Virus record (IMG/VR): IMGVR_UViG_2526164632_000040
Reading direction: 5' to 3' (one strand)
Origin: a virus
Lineage: Duplodnaviria > Heunggongvirae > Uroviricota > Caudoviricetes
Length of the DNA: 30,163 nucleotides
The translations under genes and the position numbers were made by a program. Within the stretch, counting starts at the first letter, position 1, and each line of letters opens with the position of its first letter. Below, one piece after another: positions 5,998-28,983 of the stretch. The notes under the pieces were generated by a model. It saw only the letters and a list, made by a program, of their open reading frames with translations. It did no database searches and had not been told where the DNA came from.

Positions 5998-7727
5998 GCC
6001 GGAAATCTTACCCCAACGTAAATGCTGCCAATCAGTATGCCCGTGATGTCGTGCGCGGAAAGATTGTGGCCTGCCAGTTTGTGATTCAGGCCTGCCAGCG
6101 CCATCTTGATGACCTGATGGCGGAAAAAAGTAAGTCGTTTCGTTACCGCTTCGACAAGGACCTGGCTGAACGGGCCGCCAAATTTATTCAGCTGTTGCCG
6201 CACACCAAGGGTGAGTGGGCATTCAAGAGGATGCCCATCACGCTGGAGCCGTGGCAGCTATTTGTGGTCTGCTGTGCGTTTGGCTGGGTCAATAAAGGGT
6301 CCCGGCTGCGCCGCTTCCGGGAGGTGTATACCGAAATCCCCCGTAAGAACGGCAAATCGGCAATCTCTGCCGGTGTTGCCCTGTATTGTTTTGCCTGTGA
6401 TAACGAGTTCGGCGCGGAAGTGTATTCCGGTGCCACGACAGAGAAACAGGCGTGGGAAGTCTTTCGCCCGGCGCGACTGATGTGTAAACGCACCCCCATG
6501 CTGACGGAAGCGTTCGGGATTGAGGTTAACGCCTCAAACATGAACCGTCCGGAGGATGGCGCGCGGTTTGAACCGCTGATCGGCAACCCAGGTGATGGTT
6601 CATCACCCCACTGTGCCGTGGTTGATGAATATCACGAGCATGCCACCGATGCGCTTTATACCACAATGCTTACCGGGATGGGGGCGCGACGTCAGCCACT
6701 GATGTGGGCCATCACCACCGCCGGGTACAACATTGAGGGGCCGTGCTACGACAAGCGGCGGGAAGTCATCGAGATGCTCAACGGCTCGGTGCCTAACGAT
6801 GAACTGTTCGGGATCATCTATACCGTTGATGAAGGTGACGACTGGACCGACCCGCAGGTGCTGGAAAAAGCCAATCCAAATATTGGCGTGTCGGTTTATC
6901 GCGAATTTTTGTTAAGTCAGCAGCAGCGTGCGAAAAATAACGCCCGTCTGGCAAACGTCTTTAAAACAAAACACCTCAATATCTGGGTGTCGGCGCGTTC
7001 GGCGTATTTCAACCTGGTGAGCTGGCAGAGCTGCGAGGATAAATCACTGACCCTTGAGCAGTTCGAGGGGCAGCCGTGCATTCTGGCCTTTGACCTGGCG
7101 CGTAAGCTGGATATGAACAGCATGGCGCGACTTTATACCCGCGAGATTGACGGTAAAACGCATTACTACAGTGTGGCCCCGCGCTTCTGGGTACCGTATG
7201 ACACGGTGTACAGCGTCGAGAAAAATGAAGATAGACGGACAGCCGAACGCTTTCAGAAATGGGTGAAAATGGGCGTCCTGACCGTTACCGATGGTGCAGA
7301 GGTGGATTATCGCTACATCCTCGAGGAGGCCAAAGCGGCGAACAAAATCAGCCCGGTCAGTGAGTCACCCATCGACCCCTTCGGGGCGACCGGGCTGTCA
7401 CATGACCTTGCTGATGAAGATCTGAATCCCGTCACTATCGTCCAGAACTTCGCCAATATGTCCGATCCGATGAAAGAGCTGGAAGCAGCGATTGAATCGG
7501 GACGCTTTCATCATGACGGCAATCCCATCATGACCTGGTGTATCGGCAATGTGGTCGGCAAAAACATGCCAGGTAACGATGATTTAGTGAAGCCCGTCAA
7601 GGAGCAGGCGGAAAACAAAATCGATGGTGCGGTTGCACTGATTATGACGATCGGTCGGGCAATGCTCAAAGAACCTGACGATTTCCTCTCATCTCTTGAT
7701 CCGGACGATGATCTCTTAATTCTATGA
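5994..7727 (+). CDS. terminase large subunit
   Basis: 577 aa, the size and position expected for a large terminase. Follows terS with start/stop overlap. Confidence 0.85.
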
Positions 7728-16229: not shown

Positions 16230-16259
16230 GTAAGCGGCTCGCCAGAACCGTATTGATAT

Positions 16260-17831
16260 TTACTGAGAGGTCAGATCAACTTTCCAGGGCAACAGATCGC
16301 GTACCCGGTTTGCCGGCCAATCCTGGATATGCTCAATGACGTAACGCAGCCATTTTTCTGGTTCCACATTGTTCAGACGGCATGTGCCGATCAGCGAGTA
16401 CAACACCGCCGCATGTTCGCCACCGCTGTCGGAACCCGCGAACAGCCAGTTTTTCCGGCCTACGGCCACTCCCCGTAAGGCGTTCTCTGCGATGTTGTTG
16501 TCGATTTCCACCCAGCCATTACTGCAGTACACGTTCAGGCCATCCCACTGTTTCAGCAGGTATGCGAACGCTTTTGCCGTATCCGAGTGACGCGACAGTG
16601 TTTTCATCTGAGTCTGTATCCAGTCATACAGTGACTGCATCAGTGGCGCAGCTCTGGCTTTTCTTGCCGCCAGACGCTGTTCTGCTGTACATCCCCGGAC
16701 TTCTGCCTCTATGGCATACAGTTCACCGATACGCTGCAGGGCTTCCGTGGTGATGTCGGTGGGCACTCTTGCATGCACATCGTGGATTTTTCTCCGGGCA
16801 TGAGCCATACACGCGGCTTCCGTTATTCTGCCGGATTCGTATAACACCCGGTAACCACCGTAAGCATCGGCCTGAAGCACACCGCTGTAACCGGCCAGAT
16901 GATTTTGTGGATGGATACCTTTCCGGTCCGGTGAGTACGCGAACCAGACCGCCGGGGGCATTTCCGAACCGGCGTTACGGTCATCACGGACGTAGACCCA
17001 CAGCCGGGCGGTCCGGGTTTTACCGCTGCCCGGCTCCTGGACCGGGACGGGGATATCATCAGCATGGACTTTACCGGGCATCAGCACATACTGGCGCAGG
17101 ACGTCATACAGCGGCTCCAGCAGTTCAGCAACGGCACCTGTCCAGCGCCCCAGCGTGGCGCGGCTCAGCTCCACGCCCTGGCGACGGTATATTTCTGACT
17201 GGCGGTATAACGGCAGATGGTCTGCATATTTCCCGGTAACAACATGGGCCAGAAGCCCCGCTCCGGCATAACTGCGTGCAATGGGTTTTGAAGGTACTGT
17301 TGCCTGCACGATATGGTCGCACCGACAACAGGCCAGTTTCGGACGTTGTGTTTCGATAACCTTAAAGGCGCTGCTGATAAGCTCCAGTTGCTCTGACACA
17401 TCACACCCCAGAGGACTGAGGTCACCACCACAGGCCGGGCAGCATTCCTCTTCCGGCCGGATGACCCGGGTTTCACGGGGAAGTGAGGCCGGTAACGGTT
17501 TACGGGCTGAAGACTGGCGCAGGGCGGATGGCAGTACCGGGTCATATTGCTCACCCAGCGTTTCCGCCATTTCTTCCTGAAGTGCGCTGATTCGCTCCTG
17601 TGCTTCCTGTATCTGCCGTTCGGTTTTAGCGCGAAGTTTTTCTGAGCTTTTACCGAACTGCATGCGCTGCAGTTTCGCAACCAGCGCCTTCAGCCGGTTG
17701 ATTTCGGAAGCATAAGCCGCCACCCGCTGTGAGAGCAGGCGGTTGTATTTCGCCATCTGGCGGATGGTGTCCTGTTGCGTCTGCAACAGTGCCCGCAGGC
17801 GGGCATTCTCATGAGCAAGTGAGGTGTCCAT
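16260..17831 (-). CDS. tnpC: IS66-family transposase TnpC
   Basis: 523 aa with N-terminal coiled coil, CxxC...CxxC zinc-finger motif (CCPACGG...CCRCDH) and a large catalytic region. Confidence 0.8.
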
Positions 17832-17850
17832 ATCCTCACTTTACAACGGG

Positions 17851-18198
17851 TTATATGCGGATGCCAGCGCGTTCCGTTCGTTTCGGGTGCTTCCAGTCGA
17901 TGCCTTCGAGAAGCATGGACAACTGAGCCGGAGTAAGGTGAACCTTTCCATCGCGGGTGACCGGCCAGACGAAGCGGCCCCGCTCCAGGCGTTTGGTGAA
18001 GAGGCACAGTCCGTCACTGTCAGCCCACAACACTTTTATCTGGTCACCCCGGCGTCCGCGGAAGATGAACAGGTGTCCGGAGAACGGGTCATCCTTCAGG
18101 ACGTTCTGAACTTTTGAGGCCAGGCCGTTAAAGCCATTTCGCATATCGGTGATACCGGCAACCAGCCAGATACGCGAACCGGCAGGGAGAGATATCAT
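17851..18198 (-). CDS. tnpB: IS66-family accessory protein TnpB (Orf2)
   Basis: 115 aa with the motif LVAGITDMRNGFNGLA characteristic of IS66 Orf2 as recalled. Confidence 0.8.
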   Translation of the reverse strand: MISLPAGSRIWLVAGITDMRNGFNGLASKVQNVLKDDPFSGHLFIFRGRRGDQIKVLWADSDGLCLFTKRLERGRFVWPVTRDGKVHLTPAQLSMLLEGIDWKHPKRTERAGIRI

Positions 18199-18848
18199 CA
18201 GTGGCTGCTCCCTTTCATTTCGCGGATAAGTGTCTGTAATAACGCCGGTGTCAGTTCACCTTTCAGCCTGAGAGTTCCGGCCGGCAGAACCAGCTCGCAG
18301 CACAGACTGTCTGGCAGTGTATTTATCTGTTCAGGTATCTGCACTGGTGCCGGGATTTTATTATCCGGCTCCGGAGTTAACGTCACGGGAAGTAGCGATG
18401 TTTCATGTTCGCCGGGCGGTTGCAGGCCACCGTTACGCCAGAGATGCCGCCAGTTAAAGAGCAGGTTATCGTTAATTCCATTCTCTCGAGCTATTTGTGC
18501 GACACAGGCACCGGGTAAAAGAGTTTGCTGAACCAGTCTCCATTTAAACTCCGGTGAAAATCGGTTCCGGCGGGGTTTCTCTGCTTTCACAGGCTGAGTC
18601 ACGGTCGGGGCTGAAGGGTATCGCCCCGGGAAAAGAGCCCGGGCCAGTTGCCCGCAGGAATATTCACCGGAAAGAGGCCAGTCAGTGAATACCTGGTGAA
18701 ATCGCCTCACCAGAGAAAAAATGGCGGTTTTGCTGACACCAGTCTGCGCAGAAATGCGCGGGTACGACAGTGACTCGTCAAATCTCAGCTGTAGCACACG
18801 CAGGATCAATTCTGGATTATCTGCCAGTACCGCTTTTCGTGCATTCAT
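18198..18848 (-). CDS. tnpA: IS66-family accessory protein TnpA (Orf1), HTH-containing
   Basis: 216 aa. First ORF of the IS; its stop overlaps the tnpB start. Confidence 0.7.
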   Translation of the reverse strand: MNARKAVLADNPELILRVLQLRFDESLSYPRISAQTGVSKTAIFSLVRRFHQVFTDWPLSGEYSCGQLARALFPGRYPSAPTVTQPVKAEKPRRNRFSPEFKWRLVQQTLLPGACVAQIARENGINDNLLFNWRHLWRNGGLQPPGEHETSLLPVTLTPEPDNKIPAPVQIPEQINTLPDSLCCELVLPAGTLRLKGELTPALLQTLIREMKGSSH

Positions 18849-18933
18849 CTTAAATGTCCTTTTACTGCGAAAATGGACATTAGTATCGGAAACAGGAAAG
18901 GGAGGCGAAAGACGGTTTAAATGATGCGCTTAC

Positions 18934-18941: not shown

Positions 18942-19831
18942 AGCTTTTACTTCTGCAAAATCAACTTGATGCCATTTCTTCCACTCTGGGGGAAACGTTT
19001 CTTCCTGAGGTTAATGATGGTCTTGAAGCGGTAAAACCGCTCCTTGAGGAAGTGAGAACGTTTGTCCGTGAAAACCCGGAGCTCGTTAAGACCATTGCTA
19101 AAATCGGTCTGGCTTTACTGACAGTGGGGGCCGCTGCAGGCTCTTTGTCCAGAATCATGAAAGTTCTCGGCGGTGTGATGAATATGACGCCTGCTAAGGG
19201 GCTGATTGCTCTTCTGGTTGGTGGCGCTTACCTCATTATTGATAATTGGGAAACCGTAGGTCCTGTCATAAAAAAAGTCTGGCACGTGGTGGATGAAACG
19301 GCGCAGGCGATGGGGGGATGGGAAACTGTTCTGAAAGCGATTGCCCTGTTTATGGCAACCAAATGGGTTGCTGACGTTACCAAATCCATTACCGCAGTGA
19401 CCAGAGAGATGCGTACGCTGGGGAAGGTATCGGCAGAAACGGGATTGATGGGGAAAGGCCGCGGCTTTATCGGGAAGGCCGGGGTATATGGTTTTCTGGG
19501 AACCCTGATGTATGAGCCGGTTAAAGATACTTTGGAAAGTGTTGTTCCTGAAGATACGGTTAACTGGCTGGATAATAAAGGGCTGTTTCTGGCTTCAGAC
19601 TGGACGCCTTTTTTTGATCGTAAAGAGTACGAGCAGTATCAGGCCAGCCTGAGTCAGTACAAACCCAATGTTCCGCTGTTGAATCCATCTTCTTCCATGA
19701 CACAGCACAGCGAGCTGAAAGTCACGTTCGAGAATGCTCCGCCAGGTATGAAGATAATTGATGTACCGGGCAAAGCCGATCCCCTGATGAAAATCACGCA
19801 CGATGTGGGGTATTCTCCATTCAGACGATAA
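18942..19831 (+). pseudogene. tail tape measure protein, C-terminal fragment
   Basis: Frame is open from 18944 to the stop at 19829-19831. It is in phase with the N-terminal fragment once the IS and one duplication copy are removed (junction codon C16229+AG18942-18943 = CAG). Hydrophobic/Gly-rich sequence typical of tape measure proteins. Confidence 0.7.
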
Positions 19832-19895
19832 TATAACTACTTTAATCAAGTAGGGTTATTGAGTGGTAAAGTTTGTGCTGAATGTAGGAGAGAAT

Positions 19896-20383
19896 ATGAA
19901 GAAAATGTTTATATTGTTGTTGGCTGTAGGACTGCCATTAAACTCCTTTGCGAAGCCAGTAACGGAAAAGCAGCTTGCTACATACTTTATAGATAACGTT
20001 AAAACTTCAGCGGATAAGAATATAGATCTAGATGTAGAGGGAATAAATAGACTGTCTGTAATATGCCCAGCAAAGTCGGCAAGTGGAACTCTTTTAATAA
20101 AAAAGCATCCTACGAGTTTAATAAAAGCATTGGTGCTTTTGATTTTGAAAATAACTCACAATCTGCACCATTGACTTTTATTGTACCAATTAGTGAGGAT
20201 GAAAATAACTTTGACTCGGAAATTATTGGTTTCTCTTTTGCATTTAAAATGCCAAGAGGGCAATTCTTTGTTGATGTTACGAAAACAGGGAAGGTAAAGG
20301 CTGGCGTAAATATTAGTGGTGAAAGCGGAATTACTTATTCATCATGTAGAATAGATACTCATAATGTTGATTATGATCGTTAA
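19896..20383 (+). pseudogene. AT-rich cargo gene for a secreted protein, apparently frameshifted at an A6 run
   Basis: ATG 19896 with AGGAGA Shine-Dalgarno. Signal peptide MKKMFILLLAVGLPLNSFA. The frame (codon phase 0) stops at 20174 while an overlapping ORF in phase 2 runs 20051-20383. A6 run at 20099-20104 lies in the overlap. Markedly AT-rich. Confidence 0.4.
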
Positions 20384-20397
20384 TTTTATTACCTAAT

Positions 20398-20428
20398 AAA
20401 AAACCGCGTTTACACGCGGTTTTTATTT
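20398..20428 (+). terminator. rho-independent terminator after the cargo gene
   Basis: Hairpin AAACCGCG-TTTACA-CGCGGTTT followed by a T-run. Confidence 0.55.
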
Positions 20429-20439
20429 GAGGTGACGCC

Positions 20440-21813
20440 ATGGATTTTTCTCATATTTCTTCGTACCTATCCTCTGATTCTCGAAGTGGCTGGCGTGAAA
20501 AGCTACTTGAAGCATCATTTCGAGGTGTGCCGTTTAAGGTTGAAGAAGAAAGTGCGGGAACCGGTCGCCGTGTGGAAACACATGAATACCCGAACCGCGA
20601 CAAGCCCTATACCGAAGATCTGGGAAAAGTCACTTTCCGCCCGTCCATCACAGCTTATGTGGTGGGAGATGACTGCTTTGACCAGCGCGATCGCCTGATT
20701 GAAGCGCTGAATAAACCCGGTCCCGGCACGCTTGTCCACCCGACATATGGTGAGCTGAAAGTCTGTGTTGACGGGGAAGTTCGGGTCAGCACATCGAAAA
20801 GTGAAGGGCGTATTGTCCGCTTTGACCTGAAGTTTGTCGAAGCAGGAGAACTCTCTTACCCCACATCAGGTGCGGCGACGGCGCAGACGCTGATGTCATC
20901 CTGTTCTGCACTGGATGACTGCATCAGTGACAGCTTCAGCGGTTTCAGTATCGATGGTGTAGCGGATTTCGTGCAGAACGACGTTATCGGTAATGCCAGC
21001 ATAATGCTGGGGTATGTTTCTGATGCGATGAAAGTGGTGGATTCTGCCGTATCGGATGCCGCCAGGCTGTTGCAGGGGGATATCTCGGTACTTCTGCCGC
21101 CGCCATCGTCAGGCAAAAATTTCGTTGAGCAGGTGCAGAAAATGTGGCGTACCGGGAAACGCCTTTATGGTAACGCCAGCGACCTGGTCACCATGATCAA
21201 AACGCTTTCCGGTGTCAGCCTCGGCAGCGATCTGCAACCGCGCGGCGTCTGGAAAACGGACAGTAAAACCACCGCCACGGCGACGCAGCAGCGTAACGTG
21301 GTTGCCAGCACCCTTCGTACGACCGCAATCAGCGAAGCGGCGTATGCCGTCACCCGATTGCCTGCGCCAACAACTTCCGCGGTGATGCAGAATTCCGCAG
21401 TGGGGCAGGCAACAACACCCGCGCAGAGCACTGGCTGGCCTTCCGTCACGCATCCGGCACTGAACAATGCACCGGCGGTGAAAAACACGGTTGACCTGCC
21501 GACGTGGGAAGAACTGACTGACATTCGCGACACACTGAATACGGCAATTGATAAGGAGTTGTCCCGTACAACCAGCGATGCGCTGTTTCTGGCGCTGCGC
21601 CGGGTGAAAGCAGATCTGAATGCGGATATCAACACGCGCCTTGAACAGTCTGCACGGATCATTCAGCGCACACCGGATGAGGTTTTACCCGCGCTGGTGC
21701 TGGCGGCGACCTGGTTTGATAACGCGGCGCGTGACGCGGACATTATCCGGCGTAATGCCATTACGCATCCCGGCTTTGTGCCGGTGATCCCTCTGAAGGT
21801 GCCAGTGCAATGA
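20440..21813 (+). CDS. Mu gpN-like DNA circularization protein
   Basis: N-terminal motif WREKLLEASFRGVPFKVEEE...GRRVETHEYPNRDKPYTEDLG matches the conserved N domain of Mu N as recalled. Confidence 0.65.
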   Translation: MDFSHISSYLSSDSRSGWREKLLEASFRGVPFKVEEESAGTGRRVETHEYPNRDKPYTEDLGKVTFRPSITAYVVGDDCFDQRDRLIEALNKPGPGTLVHPTYGELKVCVDGEVRVSTSKSEGRIVRFDLKFVEAGELSYPTSGAATAQTLMSSCSALDDCISDSFSGFSIDGVADFVQNDVIGNASIMLGYVSDAMKVVDSAVSDAARLLQGDISVLLPPPSSGKNFVEQVQKMWRTGKRLYGNASDLVTMIKTLSGVSLGSDLQPRGVWKTDSKTTATATQQRNVVASTLRTTAISEAAYAVTRLPAPTTSAVMQNSAVGQATTPAQSTGWPSVTHPALNNAPAVKNTVDLPTWEELTDIRDTLNTAIDKELSRTTSDALFLALRRVKADLNADINTRLEQSARIIQRTPDEVLPALVLAATWFDNAARDADIIRRNAITHPGFVPVIPLKVPVQ

Positions 21814-25485: not shown

Positions 25486-26585
25486 ATGCATCGTATAGAC
25501 ACGAAAACCGCGCAGAAGGATAAGTTCGGCGCGGGTAAGAACGGTTTTACCCGTGGTAACCCCCAGACCGGCACGCCTGCCACCGTTCTGGATGATGACT
25601 ACTTTGACATGTTGCAGGAAGAACTCTGCAGCGTGGTGGAGGCATCCGGTGCCAGCCTGGAGAAGGGGCGGCACGATCAGCTTCTTACCGCGCTTCGTGC
25701 GCTGCTGTTAAGCCGCAAGAATCCGTTTGGCGATATCAAATCGGATGGCACTGTGCAAACGGCTCTCGAAAACCTGGGAATGACAGACATTCTGAATGAT
25801 AAACAGGATAAAAATGATAATCTGACATCATTGTCGAGCTTAACAGGAATACCGGATGGGCTGGCATTTTTTACAGGTGCCGGAACAATGGATATGACAG
25901 CGCTGACTCAAAATGGCAGGGAAATTTTAAGTAAAAAAACGTATCGGAAACTCTAAAATATTTAACACTTGGGGATGGAACAGGAAGGCTTTTGGGGGTT
26001 CAGGCATTTGGATCATCTGGGACTTATATCAAATCACCTGGTGTAACGAAAATTATAGTGGAAGCCGTTGGCGGAGGTGGTGCCAGTGGTAATTTGTCGG
26101 CAACTGCATCTGGTAACTGTGGTGTAAGTGCTGCCGGTTCCAACGGGGCATATGCTAAAGCATTTTTTTATCAGTCTATACCTGAATCCGTGCAAGTAAC
26201 TATTGGAAGCGGTGGTGTAGCAGGAACAGGACCAGGAGGCTCTGGAGGTGACGGCGGGAATACAAGCTTTGGTGATTTGCTTGTATGTCCGGGAGGAAGG
26301 GGATCAACTCAAGTTCAGCAGGTACCTCCATTTTCAGGGGGAAGTGCAACAGAAGCACCAATTCCTACAGGGCAAGGGATTCTGTTCCATTCAGTTTCAC
26401 GATCAAATTTATGTGGGGCACTTGGACTTGGTGATGATCAGGCGATTGGCGTTGAAAGTATAACCACTACTATGCTTGGGATATACGGTATTGGCGGGAC
26501 AGGTAAATACAATAAGGCGTCATCAGGTCCAGCGACAGGAAATAATGGAAATCAGGGATATATTCTTGTGTGGGAGTATCAGTAA
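25486..26585 (+). pseudogene. tail fiber protein: conserved N-terminal domain plus glycine-rich C-terminal domain, split by an apparent -1 frameshift at an A7 run
   Basis: N-terminal part (25486-25956) has the motif MHRIDT...[28 protein letters not shown] and ends in stop TAA 25954-25956. The glycine-rich ORF is open in the -1 frame from 25935 to 26585. A7 run at 25933-25939. GC content drops from about 25790 onward. Confidence 0.55.
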
Positions 26586-27362: not shown

Positions 27363-27392
27363 GTAAGCGGCTCGCCAGAACCGTATTGATAT

Positions 27393-28964
27393 TTACTGAG
27401 AGGTCAGATCAACTTTCCAGGGCAACAGATCGCGTACCCGGTTTGCCGGCCAATCCTGGATATGCTCAATGACGTAACGCAGCCATTTTTCTGGTTCCAC
27501 ATTGTTCAGACGGCATGTGCCGATCAGCGAGTACAACACCGCCGCATGTTCGCCACCGCTGTCGGAACCCGCGAACAGCCAGTTTTTCCGGCCTACGGCC
27601 ACTCCCCGTAAGGCGTTCTCTGCGATGTTGTTGTCGATTTCCACCCAGCCATTACTGCAGTACACGTTCAGGCCATCCCACTGTTTCAGCAGGTATGCGA
27701 ACGCTTTTGCCGTATCCGAGTGACGCGACAGTGTTTTCATCTGAGTCTGTATCCAGTCATACAGTGACTGCATCAGTGGCGCAGCTCTGGCTTTTCTTGC
27801 CGCCAGACGCTGTTCTGCTGTACATCCCCGGACTTCTGCCTCTATGGCATACAGTTCACCGATACGCTGCAGGGCTTCCGTGGTGATGTCGGTGGGCACT
27901 CTTGCATGCACATCGTGGATTTTTCTCCGGGCATGAGCCATACACGCGGCTTCCGTTATTCTGCCGGATTCGTATAACACCCGGTAACCACCGTAAGCAT
28001 CGGCCTGAAGCACACCGCTGTAACCGGCCAGATGATTTTGTGGATGGATACCTTTCCGGTCCGGTGAGTACGCGAACCAGACCGCCGGGGGCATTTCCGA
28101 ACCGGCGTTACGGTCATCACGGACGTAGACCCACAGCCGGGCGGTCCGGGTTTTACCGCTGCCCGGCTCCTGGACCGGGACGGGGATATCATCAGCATGG
28201 ACTTTACCGGGCATCAGCACATACTGGCGCAGGACGTCATACAGCGGCTCCAGCAGTTCAGCAACGGCACCTGTCCAGCGCCCCAGCGTGGCGCGGCTCA
28301 GCTCCACGCCCTGGCGACGGTATATTTCTGACTGGCGGTATAACGGCAGATGGTCTGCATATTTCCCGGTAACAACATGGGCCAGAAGCCCCGCTCCGGC
28401 ATAACTGCGTGCAATGGGTTTTGAAGGTACTGTTGCCTGCACGATATGGTCGCACCGACAACAGGCCAGTTTCGGACGTTGTGTTTCGATAACCTTAAAG
28501 GCGCTGCTGATAAGCTCCAGTTGCTCTGACACATCACACCCCAGAGGACTGAGGTCACCACCACAGGCCGGGCAGCATTCCTCTTCCGGCCGGATGACCC
28601 GGGTTTCACGGGGAAGTGAGGCCGGTAACGGTTTACGGGCTGAAGACTGGCGCAGGGCGGATGGCAGTACCGGGTCATATTGCTCACCCAGCGTTTCCGC
28701 CATTTCTTCCTGAAGTGCGCTGATTCGCTCCTGTGCTTCCTGTATCTGCCGTTCGGTTTTAGCGCGAAGTTTTTCTGAGCTTTTACCGAACTGCATGCGC
28801 TGCAGTTTCGCAACCAGCGCCTTCAGCCGGTTGATTTCGGAAGCATAAGCCGCCACCCGCTGTGAGAGCAGGCGGTTGTATTTCGCCATCTGGCGGATGG
28901 TGTCCTGTTGCGTCTGCAACAGTGCCCGCAGGCGGGCATTCTCATGAGCAAGTGAGGTGTCCAT
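27393..28964 (-). CDS. tnpC: IS66-family transposase TnpC
   Basis: Translation identical to copy 1 TnpC (523 aa). Confidence 0.8.
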
Positions 28965-28983
28965 ATCCTCACTTTACAACGGG

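Follow-up and report, generated by a model that had tools for sequence, protein, structure and literature searches.

An AT-rich insert interrupts the tail operon of a tailed-phage genome (Caudoviricetes; IMG/VR record IMGVR_UViG_2526164632_000040), and the gene that it carries changes reading frame at a run of six A residues. Two questions arise from this locus, namely whether the insert is a true cargo gene, and whether the frame break belongs to the phage or to the assembly. A preliminary description, made from the letters of the DNA without database searches, had read the insert as a cargo gene for a secreted protein of no recognised family, lying between the tape-measure and N genes and disrupted or recoded at the A-run. 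The whole stretch of DNA that was analysed, 30,163 nt in length, is referred to here as the window, and the features discussed below are located in Table 1.

Table 1. Positions, in window coordinates, of the cassette, its signals and the surrounding features.
Feature	Position	Strand	Remarks
T6 run	1942		T7 in strain 12A
IS679 (IS66 family)	16230-18933	-	splits tape-measure gene; target duplication GGAAAACC
3' part of tape-measure gene (PF10145)	19052-19831	+	downstream of the IS
Moron cassette, AT-rich insert	19832-20439	+	between tape-measure stop (19829-19831) and N start (20440)
Shine-Dalgarno sequence AGGAG	19886-19890	+	5 nt upstream of ATG 19896; read from sequence
Coding region, PHROG 5586 protein	19896-20383	+	488 nt with frame break; 489 nt in relatives
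Signal peptide MKKMFILLLAVGLPLNSFA	19896-19952	+	predicted SPase I cleavage after SFA
A6 run (20099-20104) plus G	20099-20105	+	A7 in all comparators, strain 12A included; upstream-frame reading A.AAA.AAG
Imperfect inverted repeat (hairpin) in coding region	20119-20183	+	starts 14 nt after the heptamer
Stop codon of upstream frame	20172-20174	+	ends the frame from ATG 19896
Intrinsic terminator, hairpin plus U-tract	20398-20428	+	-20.4 kcal/mol, z = -5.0
Mu N-like DNA circulation protein gene (PF07157)	20440-21813	+
A7 run	25933		A8 in strain 12A

The window is contig AIHC01000087.1 of the draft assembly GCA_000250255.2, one of three sister drafts of the DEC12 series, and it holds an SfV-like prophage with lambdoid early genes, an HK97-type head and a Mu-type tail. 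This prophage is 99.96% identical to that of the complete O111:H2 strain 12A. Two copies of IS679 (2,704 bp, 99.9% identical, with tnpA, tnpB and tnpC on the minus strand) are present in the window; one splits the tape-measure gene, and the second, at 27363-30066, lies at the prophage end with the target duplication TACTGATG, where strain 12A has a DinI-like gene. Both copies are missing from the near-identical prophage of strain 12A. The tail-fibre gene is truncated as well (window 25486-25956; L037 25653-25949), and because the fibre is truncated in strain 12A too, where it is annotated as partial stfP, the prophage was already defective before the IS679 insertions. With the tape measure interrupted by an insertion sequence and the fibre cut short, the prophage of the window is, as far as its sequence tells, defective and clearly decaying.

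The insert has a GC content of 34.3% (19835-20435), compared to 52.8% for the window and 49-62% for the flanking tail genes, which bears out the AT-rich island of roughly 600 bp in the preliminary description; the genes on either side match PF10145 and PF07157, placing the island between the tape measure and N as described. The Shine-Dalgarno sequence and the start codon at 19896 that had been assigned to the gene were likewise read from the sequence. The strong terminator that had been proposed was tested against 200 shuffled sequences, and 0/200 folded as well. Its stem, CCGCG/CGCGG at 20404-20419, is extended by A5/U5 pairs and is followed by a U-tract that runs to 20428; a consensus scanner did not call a terminator at 20398-20428, probably because the A/U extension of the stem uses up the T-tract. 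The prophage carries a Q antiterminator gene, and late transcription may therefore read through the cassette terminator.

The frame limits of the gene were also found to be as first described. The frame that opens at ATG 19896 has, as written, a product of 92 aa, including an out-of-frame hydrophobic tail of 22 aa, and a second (-1) frame is open from 20051, after the TAG at 20048-20050, to the TAA at 20381-20383. The A6 run lies in the overlap of the two frames, and the addition of one A joins them in a single open reading frame, as the preliminary description had foreseen; the length that it gave for the fused protein, about 165 aa, was slightly too great, the actual product being 162 aa. 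The intact allele in relatives is of this same length (WP_000738065.1). The A-run had been named as the likely shift point; it is exactly where the frame changes, and one added A does give the form seen in every relative.

Taken together, the foreign composition of the locus, its own Shine-Dalgarno sequence and terminator, and its absence from close relatives mark it as what the preliminary description called it, a cargo gene: on these sequence features it is an add-on gene (moron) in the tail operon of an SfV-like E. coli prophage. The N genes of SfV, SfI, SfII, SfIV and vB_EcoM-689R6 are 96.6-98% identical to the N gene of the window. At the tape measure-N junctions that were inspected, those of SfV and vB_EcoM-689R6, the same position is empty, with a gap of 45-60 nt between the two genes and an N gene that is 97-98% identical; its absence from phages of the SfV type with so similar an N shows that the cassette gene is true extra DNA. 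Only one of 50,697 phage records, that of vB_EcoM-720R4, encodes the protein. In a distant clade, the cassette is also GC-poor (37% vs 52-54%) and likewise has a terminator. That the gene might be an integral component of the tail module was considered and rejected, since phages of the SfV type have nothing in the slot and the distant homologues are encoded elsewhere than in tail operons.

Gene 15 of phage HK97 is reportedly the moron prototype, a status said to go back to Juhala and colleagues in 2000 and to Cumby and colleagues in 2012. Morons in tail operons, with that gene as the prototype, have been reviewed (PMC3594210). Similar to gene 15, the cassette gene is extra DNA compared to close relatives, deviates in GC content, lies in a tail operon beside the tape-measure gene, has its own terminator, and encodes a small product that is targeted (here by prediction) to the envelope. 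Dissimilar from it, however, the product described here is predicted to be a β-barrel of soluble type with a cleavable signal peptide, encoded after the tape measure, whereas HK97 gp15 is a YebO-like inner-membrane protein whose gene is flanked by those of the tail chaperone and the tape measure; the two proteins showed no detected homology. Furthermore, a consensus scan of 19500-20700 found no promoter for the cassette, and a relaxed scan returned only a weak extended -10 element, TGgTAAAGT, ending at 19872.

Two further observations concern the junction itself. In SfV, the 45 nt that separate tape measure and N in the empty slot (L044 ~2535-2580) contain a good terminator-like hairpin, CCCACTCCGGTGGGATTTTTT, which means that phages with the moron are not alone in having a terminator here. 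In addition, a mosaic breakpoint was located at window 20440-20508: nucleotide homology with phages of the SfV type sets in at 20509, ~70 nt into the N gene, and so the 3' end of the tape-measure gene, the moron and the 5' end of N travel as one block.

In all of the closest relatives (the E. coli C3 prophage, phage vB_EcoM-720R4, and the DA33137 and WEM25 prophages), this slot is annotated with one 489-nt gene for a 162-aa hypothetical protein. Homologues beyond these are few. A clade at 49% identity in Shigella flexneri and a clade at 47% identity both occupy the slot after the tape measure, and members at 25-28% identity (L040, L041 and L043) reside in plasmid-prophage-like elements, in maintenance or immunity regions and not in tail operons. 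The neighbours of these last members are ParA, a cI/S24-type repressor and toxin-antitoxin pairs (Gp49/HTH, MazE/PemK), and in one case the family member adjoins an IncFII RepA. The picture is thus one of a moron with a predicted exported product that is conserved down to ~25% identity and is found in two accessory slots of temperate elements. The gene is 49% identical to its Shigella-clade counterpart, compared to 71-82% for the tail genes, and its dN/dS is 0.2-0.8 vs 0.08-0.2 for N; by both measures it is evolving faster than its tail neighbours. In one further locus (L042 2387-3423), the DNA downstream of a tape-measure gene holds a distant homologue side by side with a HIRAN-domain gene, which suggests that the slot after the tape measure is a general hot spot for cargo.

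The product of the intact gene was then considered. It begins with a segment that the preliminary description had taken for a Sec-type signal peptide without a lipobox, and sequence inspection agrees with this: the n-region is MKK, the h-region MFILLLAVGLPL has the ten or more residues expected and a mean Kyte-Doolittle hydropathy of 2.68, and small residues occupy positions -3 and -1 (S-F-A). The motif L-[AS]-[GA]-C is missing because the signal peptide has no Cys, and in the E. coli clade no Cys occurs within the first 56 residues; the signal region of the Shigella clade contains LTSC, but also AQA|K. Every full-length member of the family has a signal peptide; in the structural model, the segment has low pLDDT. 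The protein matches PHROG 5586 over its full length (E = 2.6e-85, residues 1-161 of 161), a family annotated as of unknown function, and sequence searches of Pfam, NCBIfam, PADLOC and the PDB returned nothing meaningful, in keeping with the earlier remark that no family was recognised. Specifically, none of 13 family members matched the Pfam MliC profile at E up to 10, and 0/13 matched a PADLOC defence model at E up to 1. A Pect-lyase match (E = 0.048, below the cut-off) and a Na/Ca-exchanger match (E = 0.77) were disregarded as weak, and a match to P0044 (1036 aa, E = 1.8e-4) was taken as a spurious hit to a repeat protein. Literature searches on the protein accessions, the phage name and the DECA genome announcement yielded nothing usable.

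Structure prediction, a step that the preliminary description had proposed, was carried out with AlphaFold on the natural A7 allele (P0002). The model has a mean pLDDT of 82, exceeds 90 over most of the mature part, and consists of one helix and a confident eight-stranded β-barrel. Two near-invariant cysteines, C57 and C151, and a GQFFVDV.K.GK..AGVN core occur in all full-length members. A Foldseek search returned nothing at an E of 1e-3 or better, and the matches from fold searches were to generic small barrels, with MoaF-like or calycin-type proteins (4q51, 5hal, avidins, FABP/lipocalins) among the closest known folds. The lysozyme inhibitors PliC/MliC and the inhibitor PhiA scored at the level of generic barrels, below the MoaF-like and avidin-type barrels, at 8-16% identity, and dissimilar from them, the PHROG 5586 protein has an extra N-terminal helix. 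Membership in MliC/PliC (PF09864) was rejected on the lack of a Pfam match and an hhalign probability of 1.5% against E. coli MliC.

From its sequence and model, the 162-aa pre-protein would be exported by the Sec pathway and cleaved by SPase I after residue 19 to a mature protein of ~143 aa, a helix plus an eight-stranded barrel that is probably pinned by a C57-C151 disulfide and that presumably acts in the periplasm. We infer periplasmic export, the disulfide and any role at the envelope, whereas gene structure, foreign composition, absence from close relatives, conservation of the family and the predicted fold were read out directly. One speculative role is superinfection exclusion, which the preliminary description had suggested alongside host interaction and for which HK97 gp15 (PMC3594210) offers an analogy; another is hydrolase inhibition. 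The protein is a reasonable but unremarkable candidate for a prophage envelope factor, with no match to a characterised family of defence or virulence.

Whether the frame break is real was approached through the length of the run in relatives. In a 601-nt alignment, the window differed from E. coli C3 and phage 720R4 by one base only, A6 against A7. The A7 run and an intact 162-aa open reading frame were present in 101/101 complete E. coli genomes with the gene, and only A7 was found in 12/12 metagenome contigs and 19/19 viral contigs, in censuses whose search pattern accepted A-runs of 5-8; no A8 allele was seen. Altogether, A6 occurred in 0/132 sequences of the unbiased censuses, and > 97% of the sampled alleles were A7 with a single open reading frame. 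The A6 form does exist elsewhere: an exact look-up placed the 106-aa downstream reading frame, which can arise from A6 only, on at least 21 contigs (a contig look-up gave 39 index blocks), compared to > 1,000 for the intact protein, and a 103-aa upstream reading frame on 10 contigs. When ten loci with frameshifted reading frames were fetched, A6 was found in 10/10.

Substitutions were counted over 3.8 kb of flanking sequence with the A-run excluded. The A6 alleles of the window and L011 are 0 substitutions from the nearest A7 allele (L022) and 21 from the nearest other A6; the corresponding numbers are 8 (L002) and 22 for L006, and 9 (L023) and 22 for L007 and L013. The proteins P0028 and P0029 represent the A6 frameshift on an ST131-type haplotype, which brings the haplotype backgrounds that carry A6 to at least four. 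Descent of all A6 alleles from one lineage was therefore rejected, given that the nearest neighbours are A7 alleles and that proteins of a second haplotype carry the frameshift. Two of the A6 loci (L008 and L012) contain many homopolymer deletions, and in at least six clean, unrelated A6 assemblies the A-run is the sole indel in 8.6-10.8 kb. Because A6 is the only indel in these clean assemblies, loss of an A from the tract evidently occurs in nature too, albeit infrequently.

The window itself, however, comes from a draft series in which such losses can be artificial. Compared to strain 12A, the window has three indels (Table 1), all of them one-base homopolymer differences in which the window is the shorter. 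Runs were shortened in 3/11 cases of 7 or more bases, 0/18 of 6 bases and 0/76 of 5 bases, and all run changes were shortenings, a pattern that is length-dependent and deletion-only. Length-dependent shortening of homopolymers is typical of flow-based sequencing. The draft was probably sequenced on the 454 platform, for which the use of 454 Titanium in a paper of that period from the same centre (PMC3491183) is indirect support. Furthermore, the sister draft DEC12A has 0 SNPs in 15,039 bp compared to strain 12A, and therefore evidently derives from the same strain; its two differences are both one-base homopolymer shortenings, a T7 to T6 and an A6 to A5 that splits the terminase large-subunit gene. 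In this sequence comparison, the split terminase gene is direct evidence of homopolymer under-calls specific to a draft. The A5 run lies at L078 ~14167 (window ~6124-6129), is A6 in 12A and in the sister drafts, and leaves a terminase of 498 aa instead of 577.

The other two shortened runs of the window were also followed. The T6 at 1942-1947 (reading frame 1916-2161) is T7 in 101/101 complete E. coli genomes, strain 12A included, and its shortening frameshifts a conserved hypothetical gene of 81-85 aa downstream of the Q antiterminator; T6 is common to the three DEC12-series drafts and to the Logan re-assembly of SRR124116. Among the EHX-series accessions listed for the cluster, the A6 downstream reading frame occurs once (EHX25102.1) and the T6-truncated reading frame three times, one per sister draft. 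The A7 at 25933-25939 is common to L011 and L022 and lies just past the truncated stfP-like tail-fibre gene.

Because the draft assembly under-counts long single-base runs, the break is more likely an artefact than biology, and on the sequence comparisons we lean, with no more than modest conviction, toward the missing A at 20099 being a homopolymer under-call in a true run of A7. In weighing the two, a per-run under-call rate of several percent or more in the draft was set against a natural A6 frequency of ~1-3%. A counterpoint to the artefact is that no indel other than those at the three homopolymer sites separates the window from its relatives over ~15-25 kb. A generally noisy assembly was considered and set aside, as there was 1 indel in ~15 kb compared to the phage and the errors were confined to runs of 6-7 bases or more. 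Regarding the preliminary wording "disrupted or recoded", the frame break at A6 thus stands as written in the assembly, the disruption is made doubtful by the homopolymer shortenings of the sister drafts, and the recoding does not hold. The frameshift is most likely an assembly artefact, the same draft carrying at least one other homopolymer shortening that breaks a reading frame, and calls of pseudogenes or recoding from this assembly series are not to be trusted without the reads.

A real and recent loss of function, in which replication slippage turned A7 into A6 and left a young pseudogene in a crippled prophage, is a credible but less probable account. The recurrence of A6 on its several backgrounds, each nearest to A7 alleles, and the six assemblies with no other indel speak for it. 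A true pseudogene is also plausible in a prophage that is visibly decaying, its tape measure interrupted by IS679 and its fibre gene cut short. Against this account stand the demonstrable under-calls of the draft series, the rarity of A6 in the unbiased censuses, and the lack of any secondary mutation, the window being identical to an A7 allele (L022) over 3.8 kb. If the frameshift were real, ribosomes would stop at 20174 after 92 aa; with the frame lost beyond residue 70, strands 3-8 and Cys151 would be missing, and the protein should therefore be inactive. Some wild-type protein (...LLIKK-ASYEF...) could still be made by a -1 slip on A.AAA.AAG, as the upstream frame reads ATA.AAA.AAG and so places an A_AAA_AAG slippery heptamer in the correct phase for a slip product that is the wild-type protein. 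This rescue would be small, however, because heptamers free of stimulators are weak and the sole nearby hairpin lies 14 nt downstream. Heptamers without stimulators reach only 2-10 times a background of ~0.055% (PMC4066793), and the heptamer would at most make a real A6 allele slightly leaky.

A broader reading that joins these elements seems to us unlikely, albeit worth setting out. PHROG 5586 would then be an uncharacterised class of periplasmic effector of prophages, a helix plus β-barrel stabilised by a disulfide, that protects the lysogen at the envelope, combined with a two-slot cassette and a leaky A7 tract. The effector would, for example, bind the tail-tip or tape-measure apparatus of an incoming phage, or a peptidoglycan hydrolase, and thereby bring about superinfection exclusion; the cassette would move between the slot after the tape measure in Mu-type tail operons and the maintenance or immunity region of phage-plasmids; and the A7 tract would allow recurrent, slightly leaky inactivation.

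Programmed -1 frameshifting or phase variation, by which the A-tract would act as a switch and short and full-length products would be made in a regulated manner, is very improbable. The correctly phased heptamer, the stable hairpin downstream of it and the recurrence of A6 in several backgrounds would fit such a switch, and the heptamer is identical to that of -1 sites of the dnaX and IS911 type. Unlike those sites, however, the heptamer occurs here in the rare A6 allele only and is not kept in homologues: in its standard form the gene has A7 and one reading frame, no A8 counterpart was seen, and the clades at 47-49% identity lack the run at this site, where the sequence is ATA TTG AGA AAA GCT (A4). 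Neither the heptamer nor the two-frame architecture is thus conserved in homologues, and the frame-0 tail is not a conserved peptide. Sequence inspection found no evident Shine-Dalgarno-like motif upstream of the heptamer, and no structure begins 5-9 nt downstream of it, whereas sites of the dnaX and IS911 type have a Shine-Dalgarno-like stimulator and a hairpin at a spacing of 5-8 nt. The hairpin in the coding region, at its distance of 14 nt, is an imperfect repeat of ~17 bp (-20.5 kcal/mol, z = -4.4) in which three substitutions of the ST131-type haplotype keep pairing through G-U wobble; it is missing from the 47-49%-identity clades (z > 0) and has no evident function.

The last reading, two separate genes for a 92-aa secreted peptide and a 106-aa cytoplasmic protein from ATG 20063, is excluded, because all relatives, which the preliminary description had proposed to check for this arrangement, have a single 489-nt gene or, down to 25% identity, one continuous protein across both parts; gene callers do annotate the 106-aa reading frame separately in A6 assemblies, but the modelled barrel needs both halves and no Shine-Dalgarno sequence precedes 20063. 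The slippery heptamer and the splitting of the tape-measure gene by IS679 are both additions to the preliminary description, in which neither was mentioned.
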